Below are positions 9,368 to 17,500 of a DNA stretch of 20,854 nucleotides, in pieces. The translations under genes and the position numbers were made by a program. Origin of the DNA: a virus. The notes under the pieces were generated by a model, which did no database searches, was not told the DNA's origin, and worked only from the letters and a program-made list of their open reading frames with translations. Every line of letters starts with the position of its first letter. Position 1 is the first letter of the stretch. The stretch lies in the UHGV virus genome UHGV-0059920; one strand, given 5' to 3'.

Positions 9368-11134
9368 ATGAACACCACACTGACACCCGCAGATCTCGAT
9401 CCCCGTCGGCAGGCCATGCTGCTGTACTTTCAGGGATACCGCGTAGCCCGCATTGCTGAAATGCTGGGCGAGAAAGTTGCAACCGTTCACAGCTGGAAAA
9501 AACGCGACAAGTGGGGTGACTATGGGCCTCTGGATCAGATGCAGCTCACCACCGCCGCACGCTACTGCCAGCTCATCATGAAGGAGCACAAAGAAGGGAA
9601 AGATTTCAAAGAGATTGACCTGCTGGCGCGCCAGTCTGAGCGCCACGCGCGGATCGGCAAGTTTAACAATGGCGGCAACGAAGCCGACTTAAACCCTAAC
9701 GTCGCCAACCGCAACAAAGGCCCACGCCGTCAGCCTGAAAAGAATGTTTTCACCGATGACCAGATTGAGAAGCTGGAAGAAATTTTCCATTCCTCCATGT
9801 TCAACTACCAGCGCCACTGGTGGGAAGCCGGAAAAACCAACCGCATCCGCAACCTGCTGAAGTCACGCCAGATCGGCGCGACCTTCTATTTTGCCCGTGA
9901 AGCCCTGATTGACGCCCTGCTTACCGGACGTAACCAGATTTTCCTTTCTGCCAGTAAGGCACAGGCCCACGTCTTCAAACAGTACATCATCGACTTTGCC
10001 AAAGAAGTGGAGGTGGAGCTGAAAGGCGATCCGATGGTGCTTCCCAACGGGGCCACACTGTATTTCCTCGGCACCAATGCCCGCACTGCCCAGAGTTATC
10101 ACGGCAACCTGTATCTGGATGAATATTTCTGGATACCGAAATTCCAGGAGCTGCGCAAAGTGGCTTCCGGTATGGCTATTCACAAGAAATGGCGACAGAC
10201 CTATTTTTCCACGCCATCCAGCCTGACCCACAGTGCTTATCCGTTCTGGTCCGGTGCGCTGTTCAACCGTGGGCGCAACAAAGCCGATAAGGTGGACATC
10301 GACCTGTCCCACAGCAATCTGGCTCCCGGCCTGCTGTGTGCAGACGGGCAATACCGCCAGATAGTCACCGTGGAAGATGCGGTGCGCGGCGGATGTAACC
10401 TGTTCGATCTCGACCAGTTGCGCATGGAGTACAGCCCGGACGAATACCAGAACCTGCTGATGTGCGAGTTCGTGGACGATCTCGCGTCCGTGTTCCCGCT
10501 CAGCGAACTGCAGGCGTGCATGGTGGACAGCTGGGAAGTCTGGACCGACTTTCATGCACTGGCCCTGCGCCCGTTTGGCTGGCGCGAAGTGTGGATCGGT
10601 TATGACCCGGCAAAAGGTACGCAGAACGGCGACAGTGCCGGATGCGTGGTGGTGGCTCCGCCAGCCGTGCCGGGTGGTAAGTTCCGCATTCTTGAGCGTC
10701 ACCAGTGGCGCGGGATGGACTTCCGCGCCCAGGCTGACGCCATCAAAAAACTGACCGAACAGTATAACGTGACCTATATCGGTATCGACTCGACCGGCGT
10801 CGGTCACGGGGTTTACGAGAACGTGAAAGCGTTTTTTCCTGCCGTCAGGGAGTTTGTCTATAACCCCAACGTTAAAAACGCCCTGGTACTCAAGGCCTAC
10901 GACATTATCAGCCACCGCCGTCTGGAGTTTGACGCCGGGCACACCGACATTGCGCAGTCATTTATGGCAATCCGTCGCGCTACCACTGCCAGTGGCAACC
11001 GCCCGACCTATGAAGCCAGCCGCAGCGAAGAAGCCAGCCATGCCGATCTGGCCTGGGCAACAATGCACGCACTGTTTAACGAACCACTGCAGGGCGAGTC
11101 CGCCAATACCAGCAATATTGTGGAGATTTTTTGA
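9368..11134 (+). CDS. P: Terminase ATPase (large) subunit P
   Basis: 588-aa ORF divergent from O; its stop overlaps the Q start (tgATG). Confidence 0.9.
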   Translation: MNTTLTPADLDPRRQAMLLYFQGYRVARIAEMLGEKVATVHSWKKRDKWGDYGPLDQMQLTTAARYCQLIMKEHKEGKDFKEIDLLARQSERHARIGKFNNGGNEADLNPNVANRNKGPRRQPEKNVFTDDQIEKLEEIFHSSMFNYQRHWWEAGKTNRIRNLLKSRQIGATFYFAREALIDALLTGRNQIFLSASKAQAHVFKQYIIDFAKEVEVELKGDPMVLPNGATLYFLGTNARTAQSYHGNLYLDEYFWIPKFQELRKVASGMAIHKKWRQTYFSTPSSLTHSAYPFWSGALFNRGRNKADKVDIDLSHSNLAPGLLCADGQYRQIVTVEDAVRGGCNLFDLDQLRMEYSPDEYQNLLMCEFVDDLASVFPLSELQACMVDSWEVWTDFHALALRPFGWREVWIGYDPAKGTQNGDSAGCVVVAPPAVPGGKFRILERHQWRGMDFRAQADAIKKLTEQYNVTYIGIDSTGVGHGVYENVKAFFPAVREFVYNPNVKNALVLKAYDIISHRRLEFDAGHTDIAQSFMAIRRATTASGNRPTYEASRSEEASHADLAWATMHALFNEPLQGESANTSNIVEIF

Positions 11135-12159
11135 TGGGAAAGAGTAAGAAGAACCGCGCTGCGTCGACGAAACAGATCCAGCATAAAGGCCAGACTTCAG
11201 CCGAAGCATTCAGCTTCGGTGATCCCGTTCCTGTTCTGGACCGCCGCGAACTGCTGGACTATGTGGAATGCGTACAGATGGATCGTTGGTATGAGCCGCC
11301 TGTGAGTTTCGACGGACTGGCGCGAACTTTCCGCGCCGCCGTGCATCACAGCTCACCGATTGCAGTGAAGTGCAACATTCTGACCAGCACCTACATCCCT
11401 CACCCGCTGCTCAGCCAGCAGGCTTTTTCGCGTTTTGTACAGGACTATCTGGTTTTTGGTAACGCCTACCTGGAGAAACGCACGAACCGTTTCGGTGAAG
11501 TTATCGCCCTTGAGCCTGCTCTGGCAAAATACACCCGACGCGGGTTAGACCTGGATACCTACTGGTTTGTGCAATACGGTATGACAACCCAGCCGTATCA
11601 GTTCACGAAAGGCAGCATTTTTCATCTGATGGAACCGGACATCAACCAGGAGATCTACGGCCTGCCAGGTTATCTTTCTGCCATTCCGTCAGCCCTGCTC
11701 AACGAGTCCGCCACGCTGTTCCGCCGTAAGTATTACATTAACGGCAGTCATGCAGGCTTCATCATGTACATGACCGATGCCGCGCAGAACCAGGAGGACG
11801 TGAACAACCTTCGCAATGCGATGAAAAGTGCCAAAGGACCAGGTAACTTCCGCAATCTGTTCATGTACTCGCCTAACGGCAAAAAGGACGGGCTTCAGAT
11901 CATCCCGTTGTCAGAAGTCGCGGCGAAGGATGAGTTTCTGAATATCAAAAATGTCAGCCGCGATGACATGATGGCTGCGCACCGTGTACCGCCACAAATG
12001 ATGGGAATCATGCCGAGTAATGTTGGGGGATTTGGTGATGTTGAAAAAGCCAGCCGCGTCTTTGTCCGCAACGAACTGATGACGTTACAGAAGCGACTGC
12101 AGGAGCTTAACGACTGGCTGGGCGAAGAAATAATTCGCTTCGAACCTTATATGTTTTAG
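11134..12159 (+). CDS. Q: Portal (capsid vertex) protein Q
   Basis: Start refined to ATG at 11134 with GGAG upstream (the ORF-track start at 11131 is a TTG); about 341 aa downstream of P. Confidence 0.9.
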   Translation: MGKSKKNRAASTKQIQHKGQTSAEAFSFGDPVPVLDRRELLDYVECVQMDRWYEPPVSFDGLARTFRAAVHHSSPIAVKCNILTSTYIPHPLLSQQAFSRFVQDYLVFGNAYLEKRTNRFGEVIALEPALAKYTRRGLDLDTYWFVQYGMTTQPYQFTKGSIFHLMEPDINQEIYGLPGYLSAIPSALLNESATLFRRKYYINGSHAGFIMYMTDAAQNQEDVNNLRNAMKSAKGPGNFRNLFMYSPNGKKDGLQIIPLSEVAAKDEFLNIKNVSRDDMMAAHRVPPQMMGIMPSNVGGFGDVEKASRVFVRNELMTLQKRLQELNDWLGEEIIRFEPYMF

Positions 12160-12176
12160 ATATAGATTAGGCTCAG

Positions 12177-12202
12177 AAAGCGCCTGCTACTGCAGGCGCT
12201 TT
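12177..12202. terminator. Bidirectional rho-independent terminator between convergent Q and the 97-aa ORF
   Basis: AAAGCGCCTGC-tact-GCAGGCGCTTT: an 8-bp GC-rich stem flanked by an A-tract and a T-tract, 18 nt after the Q stop. Confidence 0.6.
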
Positions 12203-12204
12203 GT

Positions 12205-12498
12205 TTACTCTTTAACAAGTGTGCCCCACACCGAGTCTTCAACCTCTTCAACAACAATATTGATGTTGCAAATAACATGGTCTTCACTTACTCGAGTATA
12301 TCTGAATAACCTTGATTTCACTTTCCCACCAAACGACTCACGGTCTTCATTGTTGGTAATGTCGACATAATCCCCAACATTCGGAAGCATCAGGAGTGGA
12401 TTGTCTTCCGAAGAACATCTTACAATCTCTCCATCATCAAGAGGTCGCGTATCCCCTTTACGTAAGTATTGAAAGTCATAGTTGTATATGGTTTTCAT
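12205..12498 (-). CDS. Hypothetical 97-aa acidic protein; AT-rich cargo gene between portal gene and cos
   Basis: Single ATG start with AAGGA 8 nt upstream, terminator immediately downstream, visibly AT-rich codon usage unlike the flanking phage genes. No motif recognised. Confidence 0.55.
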   Translation of the reverse strand: MKTIYNYDFQYLRKGDTRPLDDGEIVRCSSEDNPLLMLPNVGDYVDITNNEDRESFGGKVKSRLFRYTRVSEDHVICNINIVVEEVEDSVWGTLVKE

Positions 12499-12677
12499 TG
12501 TCTATCCTTTTGAAAGTAACATCGCTGACGTATGTTGTTTCACAGTTCCATTTCCACATTAAGTCAATGAAATCAACATCATTTAATGTGTGCCAATATA
12601 TTGCAACACGATCCCGAAAACTTCAAATCAATCTCTCCAATACGCGGGATTATTACTTTTTCGCCCCGTTACGCGCG

Positions 12678-12696
12678 CTCGTATCCCCGCCACGCC
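12678..12696. other. Putative cos site (cohesive-end region)
   Basis: Minus strand reads GGCGTGGCGGGGATACGAG. I recall the P2/P4 cohesive end as GGCGAGGCGGGGAAAGCAC and a near-identical one for 186. It lies on the far side of Q from P, where cos sits in P2. Confidence 0.5.
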
Positions 12697-12740
12697 TGCC
12701 CGCTTTGTGTAGTGGTTTTCATGCACCTGCATGACACAAG

Positions 12741-12770
12741 CAAAAGCCCGCCAGCTCTGGCGGGCATCAG
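12741..12770 (-). terminator. Rho-independent terminator, minus-strand orientation
   Basis: GCCCGCCAG-ctc-TGGCGGGC stem followed on the minus strand by TTTTGCTTG; sits after the HNH gene and before cos. Confidence 0.5.
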
Positions 12771-12878
12771 CAAAAACGATCCTCAAACGATCATGCGATT
12801 TCATGCGGCATAGACATGCGTTGGCAAAAATGTACGAAATACTCAGCTTATAGGAAATGGTCTTTTTCCAACCTCCAG

Positions 12879-13598
12879 TTAGCCAAAGCAGAAACCAATA
12901 TTGCAATTTGAAACTCCACAGTTGTGAAATTGATGTGGACCTACTCTTAGCTTGTGTTCGTCTCCTACAATCCGAGTCCCCTTAACCAACATATCTAATC
13001 TTTCCACAATCAATCTTTCAGGCGCATCAACTTTAATAATTAAACGAGGACCTTTCCTTTTTTCTATAATAGTTATTCTAGGACCGACAACCTGAACATC
13101 CCAATGCCTTGCACTACAAACCCACTCATTCTTAATTAATTCAAGATTAACAATACCTTGACTATCGTAAAATTTACCCGAAATAAGAAAAGCATTATTT
13201 TCTTTTTCAATGGTTAACAATGGCTCATTTTGAAACATTATTGGTACAGTACAGGATTCAAACGTCGCACCACCAAATATTATTGTTGGATGCCTATCAG
13301 AAAAGTCCAATATATCGGCCACATTCCCTTTTTGTAAGGCTGCAGGAGATTCCATTGCTTTAATTATTTTCTCTTTAGAGTAAAGACGTTTCGTTACTTT
13401 CGCATGGCACGTAGGACAAAGTAGTGCTATTGCATTTGGAGAGTGCTCCTTTGCATCAGCGTATGTGGGAATTACATGCTCATACTCAACAATGGGAGAA
13501 GCACAAACAACGCAACCGAAGCCACAGCGCTGCCTTACCTCCAGTTTTACAGGTTCAGGAATTGTTCTAGATAACCCATGCTTGTTAATAGTTGTCAT
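12879..13598 (-). CDS. HNH (His-Me finger) nuclease-domain protein with an unrecognised C-terminal domain of about 170 aa; candidate defence or exclusion cargo
   Basis: N-terminal motif RCGFGCVVC...EYEHVIP...SPNAIALLCPTCHAK has the spacing of a zinc-bound HNH core (CxxC, EH, N, CxxCH). AAGGTAAGG RBS upstream; visibly AT-rich. It sits where P2 carries old/tin. Confidence 0.7.
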   Translation of the reverse strand: MTTINKHGLSRTIPEPVKLEVRQRCGFGCVVCASPIVEYEHVIPTYADAKEHSPNAIALLCPTCHAKVTKRLYSKEKIIKAMESPAALQKGNVADILDFSDRHPTIIFGGATFESCTVPIMFQNEPLLTIEKENNAFLISGKFYDSQGIVNLELIKNEWVCSARHWDVQVVGPRITIIEKRKGPRLIIKVDAPERLIVERLDMLVKGTRIVGDEHKLRVGPHQFHNCGVSNCNIGFCFG

Positions 13599-13634
13599 AA
13601 CCTTACCTTAAAACTTCGAGAAACCTTTTATATA

Positions 13635-13649
13635 TTGATACTATATCAA
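13635..13649. promoter_or_regulatory. Palindrome TTGATA-cta-TATCAA upstream of the HNH gene (candidate operator/promoter element)
   Basis: Perfect 6-bp inverted repeat with a 3-bp spacer inside the 122-bp gap between the DinI-like gene and the HNH gene. Confidence 0.3.
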
Positions 13650-13720
13650 CTAACGCCTCGCACAGCTCGTTGTTCAACCTTGCTGACGCCAGAAGCAAGT
13701 TCAGACGCCAGCAACGTTTC

Positions 13721-13954
13721 TTAATGCAGCCAGCTGTCGTCTTCCCACACCTTCTGCATAATTTTCATCACTTGCTTCCTTTCTTCGTCCAGTTGCAGTC
13801 CGGTCAGTTCCACACCGTTAGAGCTACCTTTGCGGATGCGAATTACCGTTTTTGGATACAGGGGGCGCAGATTGCGGTAAAGCTCGGATTCAAGGGCGTC
13901 CAGGGTAGACTGGCTAATCTTCTGCTCTTTATCGATCATTATTTCAATGCGCAT
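13721..13954 (-). CDS. DinI-like protein (candidate Tum-like SOS antirepressor domain)
   Basis: Start refined to ATG at 13954 with GAGGTG upstream. MRIEIMIDK...LDALESEL...KIMQKVWEDDSW aligns by eye with E. coli DinI as recalled (MRIEVTIAK...IDALAGEL...WESADDW). Confidence 0.8.
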   Translation of the reverse strand: MRIEIMIDKEQKISQSTLDALESELYRNLRPLYPKTVIRIRKGSSNGVELTGLQLDEERKQVMKIMQKVWEDDSWLH

Positions 13955-13964
13955 AAAAGTCACC

Positions 13965-14153
13965 TCAGCTGATGACATCCATTGAGCGGTTGTATTCGTG
14001 GGTTCTGATTTTTGCCATGAGTTCATCTGTCAGTTCAGAAACCCACTGCAAAGCCAGCCCCTTCTCTTCATCACTACACTCACTAGCCGCTACAAGTTTA
14101 AGAAAAAAATCAATGCGCTGGAGCTTCAAAGACTCCAAAAAATAGTCCTGCAT
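13965..14153 (-). CDS. Small hypothetical protein (62 aa), first gene after the LexA box
   Basis: ATG at 14153 preceded by AGGAGGAAAG. Ends 10 nt before the DinI-like start, in a different frame. Confidence 0.5.
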   Translation of the reverse strand: MQDYFLESLKLQRIDFFLKLVAASECSDEEKGLALQWVSELTDELMAKIRTHEYNRSMDVIS

Positions 14154-14194
14154 CTTTCCTCCTATGACACCACAAGCAATACTGTATGTATAAC

Positions 14195-14237
14195 CACTGT
14201 TTATATTTACAGTATATAATAATCTTACTGATGTAAA
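14195..14237 (-). promoter_or_regulatory. LexA (SOS) box overlapping a sigma70-like promoter for the small-ORF/DinI-like operon
   Basis: CTGT-ttatattt-ACAG at 14197-14212; as a 20-mer on the minus strand it reads TACTGTAAATATAAACAGTG against consensus TACTGTATATATATACAGTA. Minus-strand -35 TTTACA (14232-14237) and -10 TATACT (14211-14216) with a 15-nt spacer. Confidence 0.6.
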
Positions 14238-14306
14238 ACGTTTTTTTACGTTCATCAGCCTGATATGCCTGGTATTATTAAGAGCACGAATTGTTAACCC
14301 GCGTAA

Positions 14307-16679
14307 TTAATACAGGTTTCGCCACTTATCATCTTCCTGCAAACGCTGGTTCCGATAGAAGATACGCAGGCCTGCTCCTGACGGAATACTGCCGCCGCGA
14401 AGGAGTAAATCGACCTCTTTCTCGCTGCCATCAAATCCTCTGGACTTCAGTTCATAGACGAGCTGCTGTCGCTGATGGTCTGTAATTCGCTGTTTGTAGT
14501 CTTTACGCCGTTTCGGTTTCACCAGGCGTAACCTTGCAGCTAGTTCCCGGCGCTCTTTTTTGCTCATACTGTGCAGGTAATCGTGCAACGCCTTGTCATC
14601 CATGCGGGTAATGTCCGTCCTGGTATCCCCATCAGCTGATTTGTCTTTCCCTTGTTGGTTCAAATTTTCAGCAAGGGGACAGTTATTGCCACGAGTCCAA
14701 GGGGCGCAAGCGCCCTGGTCGGCTGCCGCCTCCTGAACATCAACGGCCTTACGAACCATTTTCCACTTCACGGCATGAGTGCAGATCTTGCCCTCTGCAA
14801 TAGGTGACCAGATGCCATAAATACGAATGCCGTGATCGCCATAGGCGGTCGGCTCTTCGTTGATTTCATAAGCGGTTCTGATGAGGTGATATTTGCGGGG
14901 AACCAGTACGCCGCCCTGCTTCATGATGTAGGTGGCAAAACAACCAGCATCAGCAGCAGCCAGGATGGCATCAAGGCGCGGGTTATCCAGTACCGGCGCA
15001 CCTGCTTTTTTGTCCCCCTGTTGCCTTGCCGCCTGACCAGCCAGCAATCGCAGTTCACGGTAAGCCTGACGCCCCGGAATGCCAAAGAAGCGGAATTGCT
15101 GAACACGATGCAGAGACGCCCAGGCATTAACGTATTCAGCATTATCACGCAGGGATTTCCCCGTTTCCTTGCTGATCTCGCCAGCCAGACCACGCCCGTC
15201 AATGTTCTTACTGATGTATTTCGCGATGTAGCTTGTTGGCGTACCTTTGCGCGGGTTAATCAACTCAGACTTAAAGCGCGGCCCAGTGTTATTGCCCAGT
15301 TCCTCGCGGTCTTCACGGATGGCAAACTTACGCAGTAATGCAGTGATGGCGCGGCGGTCTTTTTTGCGCATAAAACACAACAGGTGCCAGTGAACTGTAC
15401 CGTCATGATGCGGCTCAGCCACCCGCACGCCATACCACCGCAATCCGGCTTTGTGCATCGCCTTACGAAATGCAGCAAACATGCCGACCAGATAATCACT
15501 GCTTTGTCTTACCGTCGCATTTGTCCAAGTTGGGTTGGGCCTGCCATTATTTAGCGTGGAATGGAAACGTGACGGACAGGTGATGGTGTAGAAAACGGCG
15601 CAGTCACCGCGCATTTCCGCGATAAGCTCCAGGCCTTTAACACAGGCCATCATCTCATTGCGGCGATGCGCAGGGTTGCTGCTGCTGGCGTTTACCACAT
15701 CCTCCATGTCCAGCGTGTCGCCGTCTTCGTTCACCAGTTCATGAGAACGAAAAAACTCCAGCGACTTACGGCGCTGCTCACGTTTATGCATCACGGCTTC
15801 ATAGCTGACATAGGGAGATGCTTTTTTGCTGACCAGGCAGACAGCACGCAACTGCTCTTCCCGCCATTCGCAACGCATCTTCCATAATTTCCGGTACCAC
15901 CAGTCAGCGCACAACATACGCGCCAGCGAACCCGGAATGAGTTCATAGGGCACGGGTTTACGGCGGTTTCTTTTCCGGCGGAGTTGCTCAAACGCAGGCG
16001 GGATGACATCCAGACGCAGGGTTTCCGCTGCCACCTTTTCCCATGTCTTGCGGATTTCTTCTGGCTTAACGTCATCGGTGACATACAAATCGCCACAAGC
16101 TGCATCAAGGCACATGCTCATATGCGCAGCTACCAGGGTGGACAGGCGTTTCACCTGATCCTGACTCATTTCAGGCAGGATCAGCAGGCCGTCCAGCCCT
16201 TCATGGCTTGCCATAAAGCGAAAAGAAGTGGATAGCTGACAGTCGCGTACATGCTCCAGCCGTTCCAGACATGGCTTAATCGTCTCACGCAAATAGCGGG
16301 AATAAGCCTTTGGCCTGCCCAGGCTGCTGAAGTATTCAATACGTTGCATCAGTGGCTTGCTGATATGGGAAGGCTGGGCATTAACGTCCGCCAGAATGAC
16401 CATATCTGGATTAAAACGCTGCTGCTCATGCGCCAGCTTTGCCCGACTAATGAGCTTATCCTGCTCCATTTCGCGCTGGACAGGATCACGGGATTCATTA
16501 AAGAAATAACGCTCCCAGACCTGATCACTCAGTGCCTCGCGGCGCAGCTGTTCCTGCTCGTTATCGGCAGCGTACAGAGCGATCAGGTTTGAAAGCGCAG
16601 AAACTGAAGATTGCTCTTCCGTCTCTACGTAAGGATTGATTGCTTTTTTCTCAGCATTCCAGGAATAGCTGTAGTTCAT
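14307..16679 (-). CDS. A: Replication initiator endonuclease A (rolling-circle nickase)
   Basis: About 790 aa with HxH metal motif ([11 protein letters not shown]) and the active-site tyrosine region ([12 protein letters not shown]). Start taken as ATG at 16679, overlapping the upstream stop (TAATG); the ORF-track start at 16730 is a TTG. Confidence 0.9.
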
Positions 16680-17500
16680 TACGCAATCTCCAGTTCGAGC
16701 TGTGAAGGCTGCAAACCATTCGACAGCCAATCAGAAACTGAAGGTGGGCGAACAGCTTCAATTGCACCTTTTAAAATTGCGCAACGGTTTTTCAGAATGA
16801 CAGCTTTCAGCTCCTTTTCCGTCAGATTGCGCGAATACTCAGCCTCCTGAATAGCCCGCGTCAGCTCAGGATATTTGCTATTAAATTTGGGGACATTGCA
16901 GGCAAGATTTGTACTGTCGGCAGTCGCCAGTGGGTAATTTCCCAACACACGACCGTCAAGCATGCGCAAACCATGAACAGCTGTTTTGAAATTGTGTCGG
17001 CAATAAATTGCTTCAAAAGCGTCCTGCATACGACGATGCCAGTGCGCAGTTCTGATAGCCGCATATTCACCAGACGATCCAAAGCAGACACGAGGCCATT
17101 CACGACATAGCTCGATAAGCCGATCGATTGACTCGTGCAGATGCCAGACGGGAGTTGCCTTCCCGTAGAACATTTTCGGAACTTCGTTTATCAGGGCATC
17201 ATTGTCACGTTCACCTCCGTCCACAACATCAGGAATGACAAAAAAAGCGACCTTAGGATGGTGGTAATAGTTCAGGAGCCATTTATAAAAATCACTCCAG
17301 TTAATTTTTAGCCCACGCACCCATGCAGAAAATGCGCCGTTATCAATGCCGACGACCTGAGCGTGCTGAATGGACGCCGCAATCTGATCTGGTCGTACAT
17401 AGGAGACGAAAGCGCCAGCTCCGCTCACCGCAATACGATGAACGTCGCCAGCACTTCCCCAGACAGGCGTCCCATGGAAATGATGAATTCCGTGGTGCAT
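16679..17500 (-). CDS. Hypothetical protein of about 273 aa, translationally coupled between dam and A
   Basis: ATG at 17500, 5 nt after the Dam stop; its own stop overlaps the A start. No motif I can assign by eye. Confidence 0.6.

Follow-up and report, generated by a model that had tools for sequence, protein, structure and literature searches.

A single-gene cassette beside cos in a P2/186-like prophage of Escherichia coli encodes a two-domain HNH protein, a candidate exclusion nuclease

The viral sequence UHGV-0059920, which is 20,854 nucleotides long and is hereafter called the window in its whole length, represents by its gene content a P2/186-like (Peduoviridae) prophage of Escherichia coli. 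On its minus strand, between the replication gene A and the cohesive-end site (cos), we found an accessory cassette with a single open reading frame (ORF; 12879..13598, ATG start) for a protein of 239 amino acids (RefSeq WP_000207842.1, 'HNH endonuclease') that is predicted to join an N-terminal HNH nuclease domain to a C-terminal all-beta domain, and that we refer to as HNH-beta. An apparently intact catalytic site, a gene that stands by itself, an acidic second domain with invariant residues, and a location on mobile carriers and, beside known systems, in a validated hotspot together fit a self-regulated sensor-effector nuclease, a type by now frequent among defence systems. We tentatively read HNH-beta as such a self-contained enzyme, serving in the exclusion of phages or mobile elements, and give this reading close to an even chance. 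A preliminary description, made from the letters of the sequence, had pointed to the same minus-strand ORF of 239 residues and had interpreted it as a horizontally acquired, single-protein nuclease acting in defence or superinfection exclusion; the observation itself is confirmed, and the interpretation as a whole is partly supported.

Architecture of the HNH-beta protein

Residues 1-85 (13344..13598, minus strand) are, as judged from the sequence, a zinc-finger HNH domain of the beta-beta-alpha-metal type that looks active and has its catalytic residues intact. The domain is basic (family mean net charge +4), Pfam model PF01844 matched it over residues 29-71 with 24.8 bits (curated cut-off 21.4), and all residues of the core are there (C29xxC32, E40-H41, H52 and C61xxC64-H65), which bears out the HNH core that had been proposed before. 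In an alignment of 63 family sequences C29, C32, H41, H52 and C61 were invariant and C64 was conserved in 62, and position 65 was occupied by H (49 sequences) or N (14 sequences). The classical Asn position is variable: N55, the Asn of an SPNA motif that the preliminary description had put forward as a catalytic control for mutation, is N in only 12 of the 63 sequences. It is a poor mutational control because it is not conserved; H41, H52 and H65 are better ones. The fold of the domain resembles that of solved HNH nucleases, and the nearest matches to the HNH core, by sequence and by fold, include EcoKMcrA, ScoMcrA and TagI.

The remainder of the protein (residues 86-239, 12882..13343, minus strand) is predicted to form a compact and conserved beta domain of about 16 strands, acidic on average (family mean charge -3) and without a known relative in the databases searched. 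An AlphaFold2 model built from the 63-sequence alignment (predicted local distance difference test (pLDDT) score 94.4, predicted template modelling score 0.86) begins with the alpha/beta HNH domain and continues through two short helices into an unbroken series of about 16 beta strands, and the C-terminal domain modelled by itself reached a pLDDT of 90.9. This region had been given as about 170 residues without a recognisable motif; neither Pfam nor PADLOC matched it, in agreement with the second part of that statement, but its length is 154 residues. The fold and profile check that had been suggested for a model of this domain was run: a fold comparison with BFVD gave nothing at E<=0.001, and a profile search of the PDB gave no meaningful relative (best E 0.92). 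Similarly, the C-terminal domains of 30 members compared with Pfam and PADLOC gave scattered single matches and no consistent one, and an hhalign comparison of one half of the domain with the other gave no internal repeat. Four positions of the domain are invariant in the 63-sequence alignment (N157, W166, D167 and M203), and the motif N157...W166-D167 is unchanged across phyla in members with unrelated flanking DNA. The whole protein belongs to phrog_6544 of PHROGs (E 2.5e-111), a group listed as of unknown function.

Scans with PADLOC, NCBIfam and Pfam for a known defence family gave only matches to the HNH core or scattered single matches. Among the families of PADLOC-DB v2 that were compared (Type IV restriction endonuclease, Cap5, PtuB, ZorE and the PD-T and PDC sets) none matched over the full length, the best being mREase_IV (E 0.0095, 13.7 bits) over the HNH core only, in line with the earlier statement that the family could not be named.

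Size and distribution of the family

A search of 5.8 billion proteins returned 269 homologues, so the ORF is not a chance one, and among the 120 homologues listed most cover at least 90% of the query and are about 240-260 residues long. When a profile of the C-terminal domain was searched against 1.84 billion representatives, we found 1938 clusters (at 50% identity) at E<=1e-3 and 1024 at E<=1e-10. In the best 150 of these matches the domain always followed an HNH-type N-terminus or the match was a short fragment, which indicates a dedicated two-domain family. A few members have extra tails after the beta domain (SEC-C, TPR or CxxCxxCC; P0245, P0215, P0264, P0101 and P0112).

The family is thinly but widely spread, and its carriers are mobile elements (prophages and plasmids); this distribution we count in favour of a role in exclusion. 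In E. coli the gene is present in 21 of 5426 complete genomes, always with at least 99.4% identity; about 1260 of the 5426 have the same phage backbone, and about 98% of such prophages are without it. Orthologues in Citrobacter (86% identity) and Cronobacter (61% identity) occupy the same slot in the same orientation in P2-like prophages. Members with 40-48% identity were found in lambdoid nin or post-P regions in E. coli, Enterobacter and Klebsiella and, within the same range, in a Pseudomonas prophage, where the member lies among the early genes on the opposite strand. On other P2-like contigs (L118, L119, L120 and L125 of IMG/VR) homologues with 45-48% identity lie antisense between the baseplate V and tail-completion S/R genes, an insertion within the late operon that is of the moron type.

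Small Acinetobacter plasmids carry members beside toxin-antitoxin genes, other plasmids (including cyanobacterial and actinobacterial ones) carry them as well, and further members lie at chromosomal sites without surrounding phage. Scanning one genome per species, we found relatives in 234 species, spread over many bacterial phyla. Counted among them are two contigs assigned to archaeal metagenome-assembled genomes (MAGs; Methanophagales and Methanothrix, L044 and L082), which encode relatives with 35-36% identity over query residues 1-219 and are possibly archaeal or else binning contaminants. IMG/VR yielded 130 relatives, mostly on contigs of prophage size. Among 50,697 deposited phage genomes 2 matched, and the sole full-length match, in a record that bears the name of its Klebsiella host strain, is most likely a prophage.

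We observed no recurrent neighbour among 77 loci from different species, which suggests that the protein works alone, and no conserved partner or immunity gene was found in these 77 species. Among the two flanking genes on each side, two methyltransferases and four integrases came up at the first 38 loci, together with many genes of no related function, and the other 39 gave strong PADLOC matches to IetA/IetS, AbiO/Nhi, AbiU, HEC-06, SspE, Orf5 and two PDC candidates. On 26 non-redundant IMG/VR prophage contigs (among L108-L187) DNA methyltransferases made up 11 of the 150 ORFs within three genes (5 Dam-type, 5 C5 and 1 N6/N4), two of them directly upstream of the HNH gene (L181 and L183); a fixed methyltransferase partner was rejected because position and orientation vary.

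An 830-bp cassette in a two-slot hotspot

The AT-rich cassette spans 830 bp (12820..13649). As compared by BLAST with Escherichia phage 500465-1 and Yersinia phage MLG42, which have the site empty, the stretches 12643-12819 and 13650-14400 are backbone, and since these blocks abut in both phages with only 9 nt between them, we consider the 830 bp a single-gene insertion. The sequence of the empty-site junction is ...CATGC-ACTACAGAG-CTAACGCC..., and the site in phage 500465-1 spans ...CATGCACTACAGAGCTAACGCC... Over 12801-13600 the GC content drops to 0.34-0.40; the genes for structure and replication have 0.53-0.63. The AT-richness noted before is thereby borne out and so, with the 9-nt empty site and the presence in 21 of 5426 genomes, is the horizontal acquisition of a single-gene cassette. 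The cassette's upstream edge coincides with a palindrome, TTGATA-tag-TATCAA (13635..13649), perhaps an operator or the scar of a recombination event, which is kept in part at the orthologous Citrobacter locus.

The HNH gene lies inside the 2.1-kb stretch that separates the gene of portal protein Q (11131-12159, plus strand) from gene A (replication endonuclease, 14307-16730, minus strand), and it is the last gene before cos, with the portal gene and that of terminase P (9368-11134, plus strand) on the other side. The interval between gpA and gpQ was defined as a hotspot by Rousset et al. 2022 (PMC9122126), and the position of the gene between gene A and portal Q, adjoining cos, agrees both with that definition and with the placement in a documented cargo slot of P2-like phages given in the preliminary description. 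Variable presence among similar prophages and alternative cargo at the same junction were found as well. The only complete E. coli genome that is 100% identical to the window over 12160-14306 is that of E. coli 11PC (NZ_CM137005.1), in which the portal and tape-measure genes are annotated by RefSeq as partial pseudogenes; the portal ORF of the window is complete (342 residues).

A cos-like cohesive-end sequence, GGCGTGGCGGGGATACGAG (12682..12700, minus strand), lies in the backbone block and is common to the P2-like prophages of E. coli, Citrobacter and Cronobacter, and the similarity of the backbone stops just past it. It presumably corresponds to the cos ends of P2 and 186, agreeing with the cos sequence at 14 of 19 positions, and the cos site is placed here by this agreement and by conservation; the P2 cos 19-mer, with up to 3 mismatches allowed, had no match.

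The hotspot consists of two slots that flank cos, slot 1 from dinI to cos and slot 2 from cos to Q. Slot 1 holds the HNH gene in the window; the same junction is mostly empty in other E. coli genomes, and its alternative cargo in E. coli encodes a DUF4145 protein (L097:1803-2543), a DUF6236 protein (L099:1711-2583), an ORF of 111 amino acids (L098:1905-2240, in BL21) or a GNAT protein, in either orientation. The DUF4145 protein matches the PADLOC model PD-T7-4 (E 2e-5). That unrelated small genes lie at one dinI/cos junction points to a small-gene sub-slot on the gene A side of cos. The cargo of slot 2 in relatives is larger and often recognisable (an AbiU-like AIPR protein, DUF262, retron St85, TIR, RES and RT-Toprim), and the HNH gene was found with varying slot-2 cargo, freely combined. 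In the window slot 2 carries one ORF of 97 amino acids alone (12205..12498, minus strand, phrog_12676; terminator at 12177-12202), which had no match in Pfam or PADLOC and whose presence, in 10 of the 5426 E. coli genomes, does not follow that of the HNH gene; it is independent cargo and no part of the HNH cassette.

Upstream genes and transcription signals

Directly upstream of the HNH gene we found a DinI/Tum-like gene (13721..14026, or 13721-13954 in RefSeq, minus strand; Pfam DinI 1.3e-22, phrog_189) and next to it a small backbone ORF, orf62 (13965..14255, minus strand; in RefSeq 62 residues, 13965-14153; phrog_698). Further upstream, past gene A, lie the genes for Dam methylase, TraR/DksA, Fil, CII and CI. 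The unit formed by orf62, the DinI/Tum gene and possibly the HNH gene is headed by a perfect LexA box, TACTGTAAATATAAACAGT (14196..14214, minus strand), of which 0.14 were expected by chance. The hairpin that follows dinI is not accompanied by a T-run, and only past the HNH gene does a good terminator occur; together with the LexA box this suggests that the HNH gene may be the final cistron of an SOS-inducible unit. In P2-like phages of the 186 type, control of tum by LexA is established (PMC12055606), and by its sequence the prophage looks like an SOS-inducible phage of that type.

As to signals of the gene itself, a Shine-Dalgarno-like sequence, TAAGGTAAGG (13601..13610, minus strand), precedes the ATG, with TAAGGT 7 nt ahead of the start codon. 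The preliminary description had credited the gene with its own strong ribosome-binding site and with a terminator downstream; a ribosome-binding site is indeed present, but it is partial and not strong. The terminator is present as well, an intrinsic one (hairpin and T-run, GCCCGCCAGAGCTGGCGGGC+TTTTG, 12746..12765, minus strand) that ends the unit before cos, but it belongs to the conserved backbone and is not the HNH gene's own, because phages without the gene share the block 12643-12819.

Possible function

On the reading that we tentatively prefer, HNH-beta would be a nuclease of two domains that acts alone, its gene being an accessory that the 186/P2-like prophage carries near its right end in a cassette without other genes. 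The beta domain would be a regulatory or sensor module and no DNA reader, because the charge of the C-terminal part averages -3 as against +4 for the HNH part and because N157, W166 and D167 are invariant across phyla. As long as no cue came from an invading phage or another mobile element, this domain would hold the nuclease inactive; on such a cue the HNH domain would cut the DNA of the invader, or that of the cell itself in an abortive-infection mode, and the cutting would exclude competitors of both prophage and host. Transcription would probably start from the LexA-box unit (orf62, DinI/Tum, HNH gene and backbone terminator) or else within the cassette, at a promoter that escaped recognition.

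Several points weigh against such a function. A sigma-70 consensus promoter was sought in the 121-bp spacer ahead of the HNH gene and not found, and with a LexA box upstream and no promoter of its own, expression of the gene may be tied to SOS and induction and not to lysogeny. The protein goes unrecognised by PADLOC, outside prophages the signal of defence islands is positive yet modest, most neighbours being unrelated genes, and the comparisons made for the C-terminal domain covered BFVD and the PDB. No record of testing for any family member was found in Vassallo et al. 2022, in the parts covered of Rousset et al. 2022 or in the parts covered of the DefensePredictor supplements, and what we say of a trigger, of the substrate and of the part played by the C-terminal domain is inference. 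A wider version, in which HNH-beta is an unnamed pan-prokaryotic single-gene immune nuclease with a new sensor fold, wired to the LexA/Tum unit in P2/186-like phages and deployed under attack or at prophage exit, is conceivable though on balance doubtful; it would fit the at least 1000 clusters (at 50% identity), the range from enterobacterial prophages to the two archaeal MAGs and the lack of a relative in Pfam, PADLOC and the PDB.

The transcription signals would also suit a phage nuclease that acts at the time of induction, co-transcribed with the LexA-controlled tum/dinI genes and giving no protection to the resting lysogen; possible jobs for it are the breakdown of host or competitor DNA, the stimulation of recombination, as by Ref of phage P1 (an HNH protein), and action against P4-type satellites that share cos. 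Unlikely as it seems to us, we keep this explanation mainly because the gene may end an SOS-inducible unit: a perfect LexA box (14196-14214) lies upstream of orf62 and DinI/Tum, dinI and the HNH gene have no consensus promoter between them, the hairpin behind dinI is without a T-run, and the first good terminator lies past the HNH gene. In addition, tum is under LexA control in P2-like phages (PMC12055606), and orientation and position, after a tum/dinI-type gene or a small backbone ORF, are the same in three genera with identities down to 61%. However, presence in 21 of the roughly 1260 E. coli genomes with this backbone marks the gene as dispensable, homologues lie on small plasmids and at chromosomal sites without phage, the family is nearly missing from deposited phage genomes (2 of 50,697, one of them a prophage), the match to Ref is limited to the HNH core, and the co-transcription is itself deduced. 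A free-standing homing HNH endonuclease, that is, a selfish gene that cuts the empty site and is copied in by repair, would account for the precise insertion of one gene where relatives have a 9-nt empty site, for the patchy and low-frequency presence, for the AT-richness of the cassette and for the filling of the same site in three genera, and enzymes of the I-HmuI type do have an N-terminal HNH followed by a C-terminal module, an order resembling that of HNH-beta. Nevertheless, we regard this origin as quite improbable: the C-terminal domain is acidic and all-beta, without NUMOD, IENR or helix-turn-helix modules, and is strongly conserved across phyla despite wholly different flanks, and DUF4145, DUF6236, GNAT and the 111-residue ORF share the junction in both orientations, which argues for a general cargo slot. 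Moreover, the family is virtually missing from the genomes of virulent phages, where homing genes abound, and has members on plasmids and at chromosomal sites in Bacteria and Archaea. The objection foreseen in the preliminary description, that the homologues might prove to be homing endonucleases, is thus weakened but keeps some probability.

A tie to DNA methylation is suggested by the nearest HNH cores (EcoKMcrA, ScoMcrA, TagI and, in PADLOC, mREase_IV with E 0.0095), by the methyltransferases among neighbouring ORFs of prophage members (11 of 150 on the 26 contigs, two directly upstream) and by the Dam methylase gene 4 kb off in the window. The protein would then be a restriction-type nuclease with a specificity set by methylation, either restriction-modification-like and blocked by a methyltransferase of phage or host, or Type IV, McrA-like and aimed at modified DNA, but the chance of this we put as very small: the position and orientation of the methyltransferases vary and most loci are without one, the Dam gene of the window belongs to the backbone and is there with or without the HNH cassette, and the PADLOC match covers the HNH core alone with 13.7 bits. 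Least probable of all, in our view, is that the protein aids terminase at cos in the manner of HK97 gp74, as its position last before cos with portal and terminase beyond might suggest, or that it is an HNH toxin of the colicin type that works with a separate immunity protein. The DNases among the colicins are enzymes of the HNH class, and packaging HNH proteins are about 100-130 residues long without an extra domain. Against both explanations, about 98% of prophages with the same backbone are without the gene, and no partner gene was found; against packaging, the homologues of lambdoid nin regions, plasmids and chromosomes are distant from terminase genes; and against a toxin, no conserved adjacent small immunity gene was found at 77 loci and no secretion or translocation domain in a Pfam scan.

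If HNH-beta is active as the sensor-effector nuclease that we prefer, few nuclease defences that need no other component would be smaller, effector and regulator sharing 239 residues, and it would offer a compact system in which to study how an HNH domain is silenced when there is neither a partner nor an immunity protein. A conserved domain that is found in about two thousand protein clusters of Bacteria and Archaea and is undescribed in databases would thereby gain a function, and the gene A-side slot, and not only the larger slot beyond cos, would be shown to hold immune genes. If it is an induction-time or a selfish nuclease instead, it would set a limit on reading every hotspot gene as defence.

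Comparison with known systems

The candidate is already catalogued: Rousset et al. 2022 (PMC9122126) give the identical protein of 239 residues as system 159 'HNH' in their Table S5B, where it is counted with 11 occurrences and bears the remark 'Likely a nuclease', and system 159 is absent from Table S2 of that paper (systems evaluated) as far as this table was covered. Several new systems in the gpA-gpQ interval were described by Vassallo et al. 2022; members of the family are absent from its supplementary text and from the part covered of the supplementary text of DefensePredictor (PMC13092281). DefensePredictor includes a cloned E. coli protein of 301 residues, 'HNH1', that has no DS name. 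A 2026 survey of P2/P4 hotspots gives antiviral signals for 15-32% of the unknown P2 hotspot proteins, and its main text does not mention HNH. New here are the two-domain family and its size, the second domain without a known relative, the exact boundaries of the cassette, the two-slot organisation of the hotspot and the possible SOS wiring.

Like other cargo of the P2 hotspot (old and tin, and system 159), the HNH cassette lies in the interval, has a variable presence and is low in GC; here, however, the hotspot divides into two slots that flank cos, and the one nearer gene A holds the HNH gene. The Old nuclease is far larger and comes from a different family, and Tin is no nuclease. Enzymes of the McrA type (EcoKMcrA, ScoMcrA and TagI) are single-protein nucleases with the closest HNH cores, but in these the HNH domain is C-terminal and follows a reader of modified DNA, whereas in HNH-beta it is N-terminal, the other domain is acidic and no modified-DNA reader (McrA-N, SRA, SBD or PUA-like) was found joined to it. 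Cap5, the HNH-SAVED effector of CBASS (cyclic oligonucleotide-based antiphage signalling systems), differs in that HNH-beta has no SAVED domain, no cyclase gene nearby and an unrelated C-terminal fold. Homing enzymes of the I-HmuI type are set apart by their NUMOD, IENR and helix-turn-helix modules, none of which was matched by Pfam in HNH-beta outside the HNH domain. The packaging HNH proteins of HK97 (gp74) and GVE2 differ as well, since most homologues of HNH-beta are unlinked to terminase, the protein has 239 residues with an extra domain, and the gene is dispensable, being absent from about 98% of related prophages; an adjacent immunity gene of the colicin type was not found either, no neighbour recurring at the 77 loci.

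The closest likeness in architecture is to DS-7 of E. coli (WP_225403053.1), whose DS name is, in DefensePredictor (PMC13092281), the label for validated systems. Homology between the two was rejected (hhalign probability 0.2%, and no DUF2634 match in HNH-beta): DS-7 has 368 residues and a gp25/DUF2634 baseplate-like C-terminus, whereas the C-terminus of HNH-beta is all-beta and without a relative. Both, however, are single polypeptides in which an N-terminal HNH domain (Cap5-like in DS-7) is followed by what appears to be a non-enzymatic C-terminal domain, and we count DS-7 as an architectural precedent, by analogy and not by homology, for the sensor-effector nuclease that HNH-beta may be.

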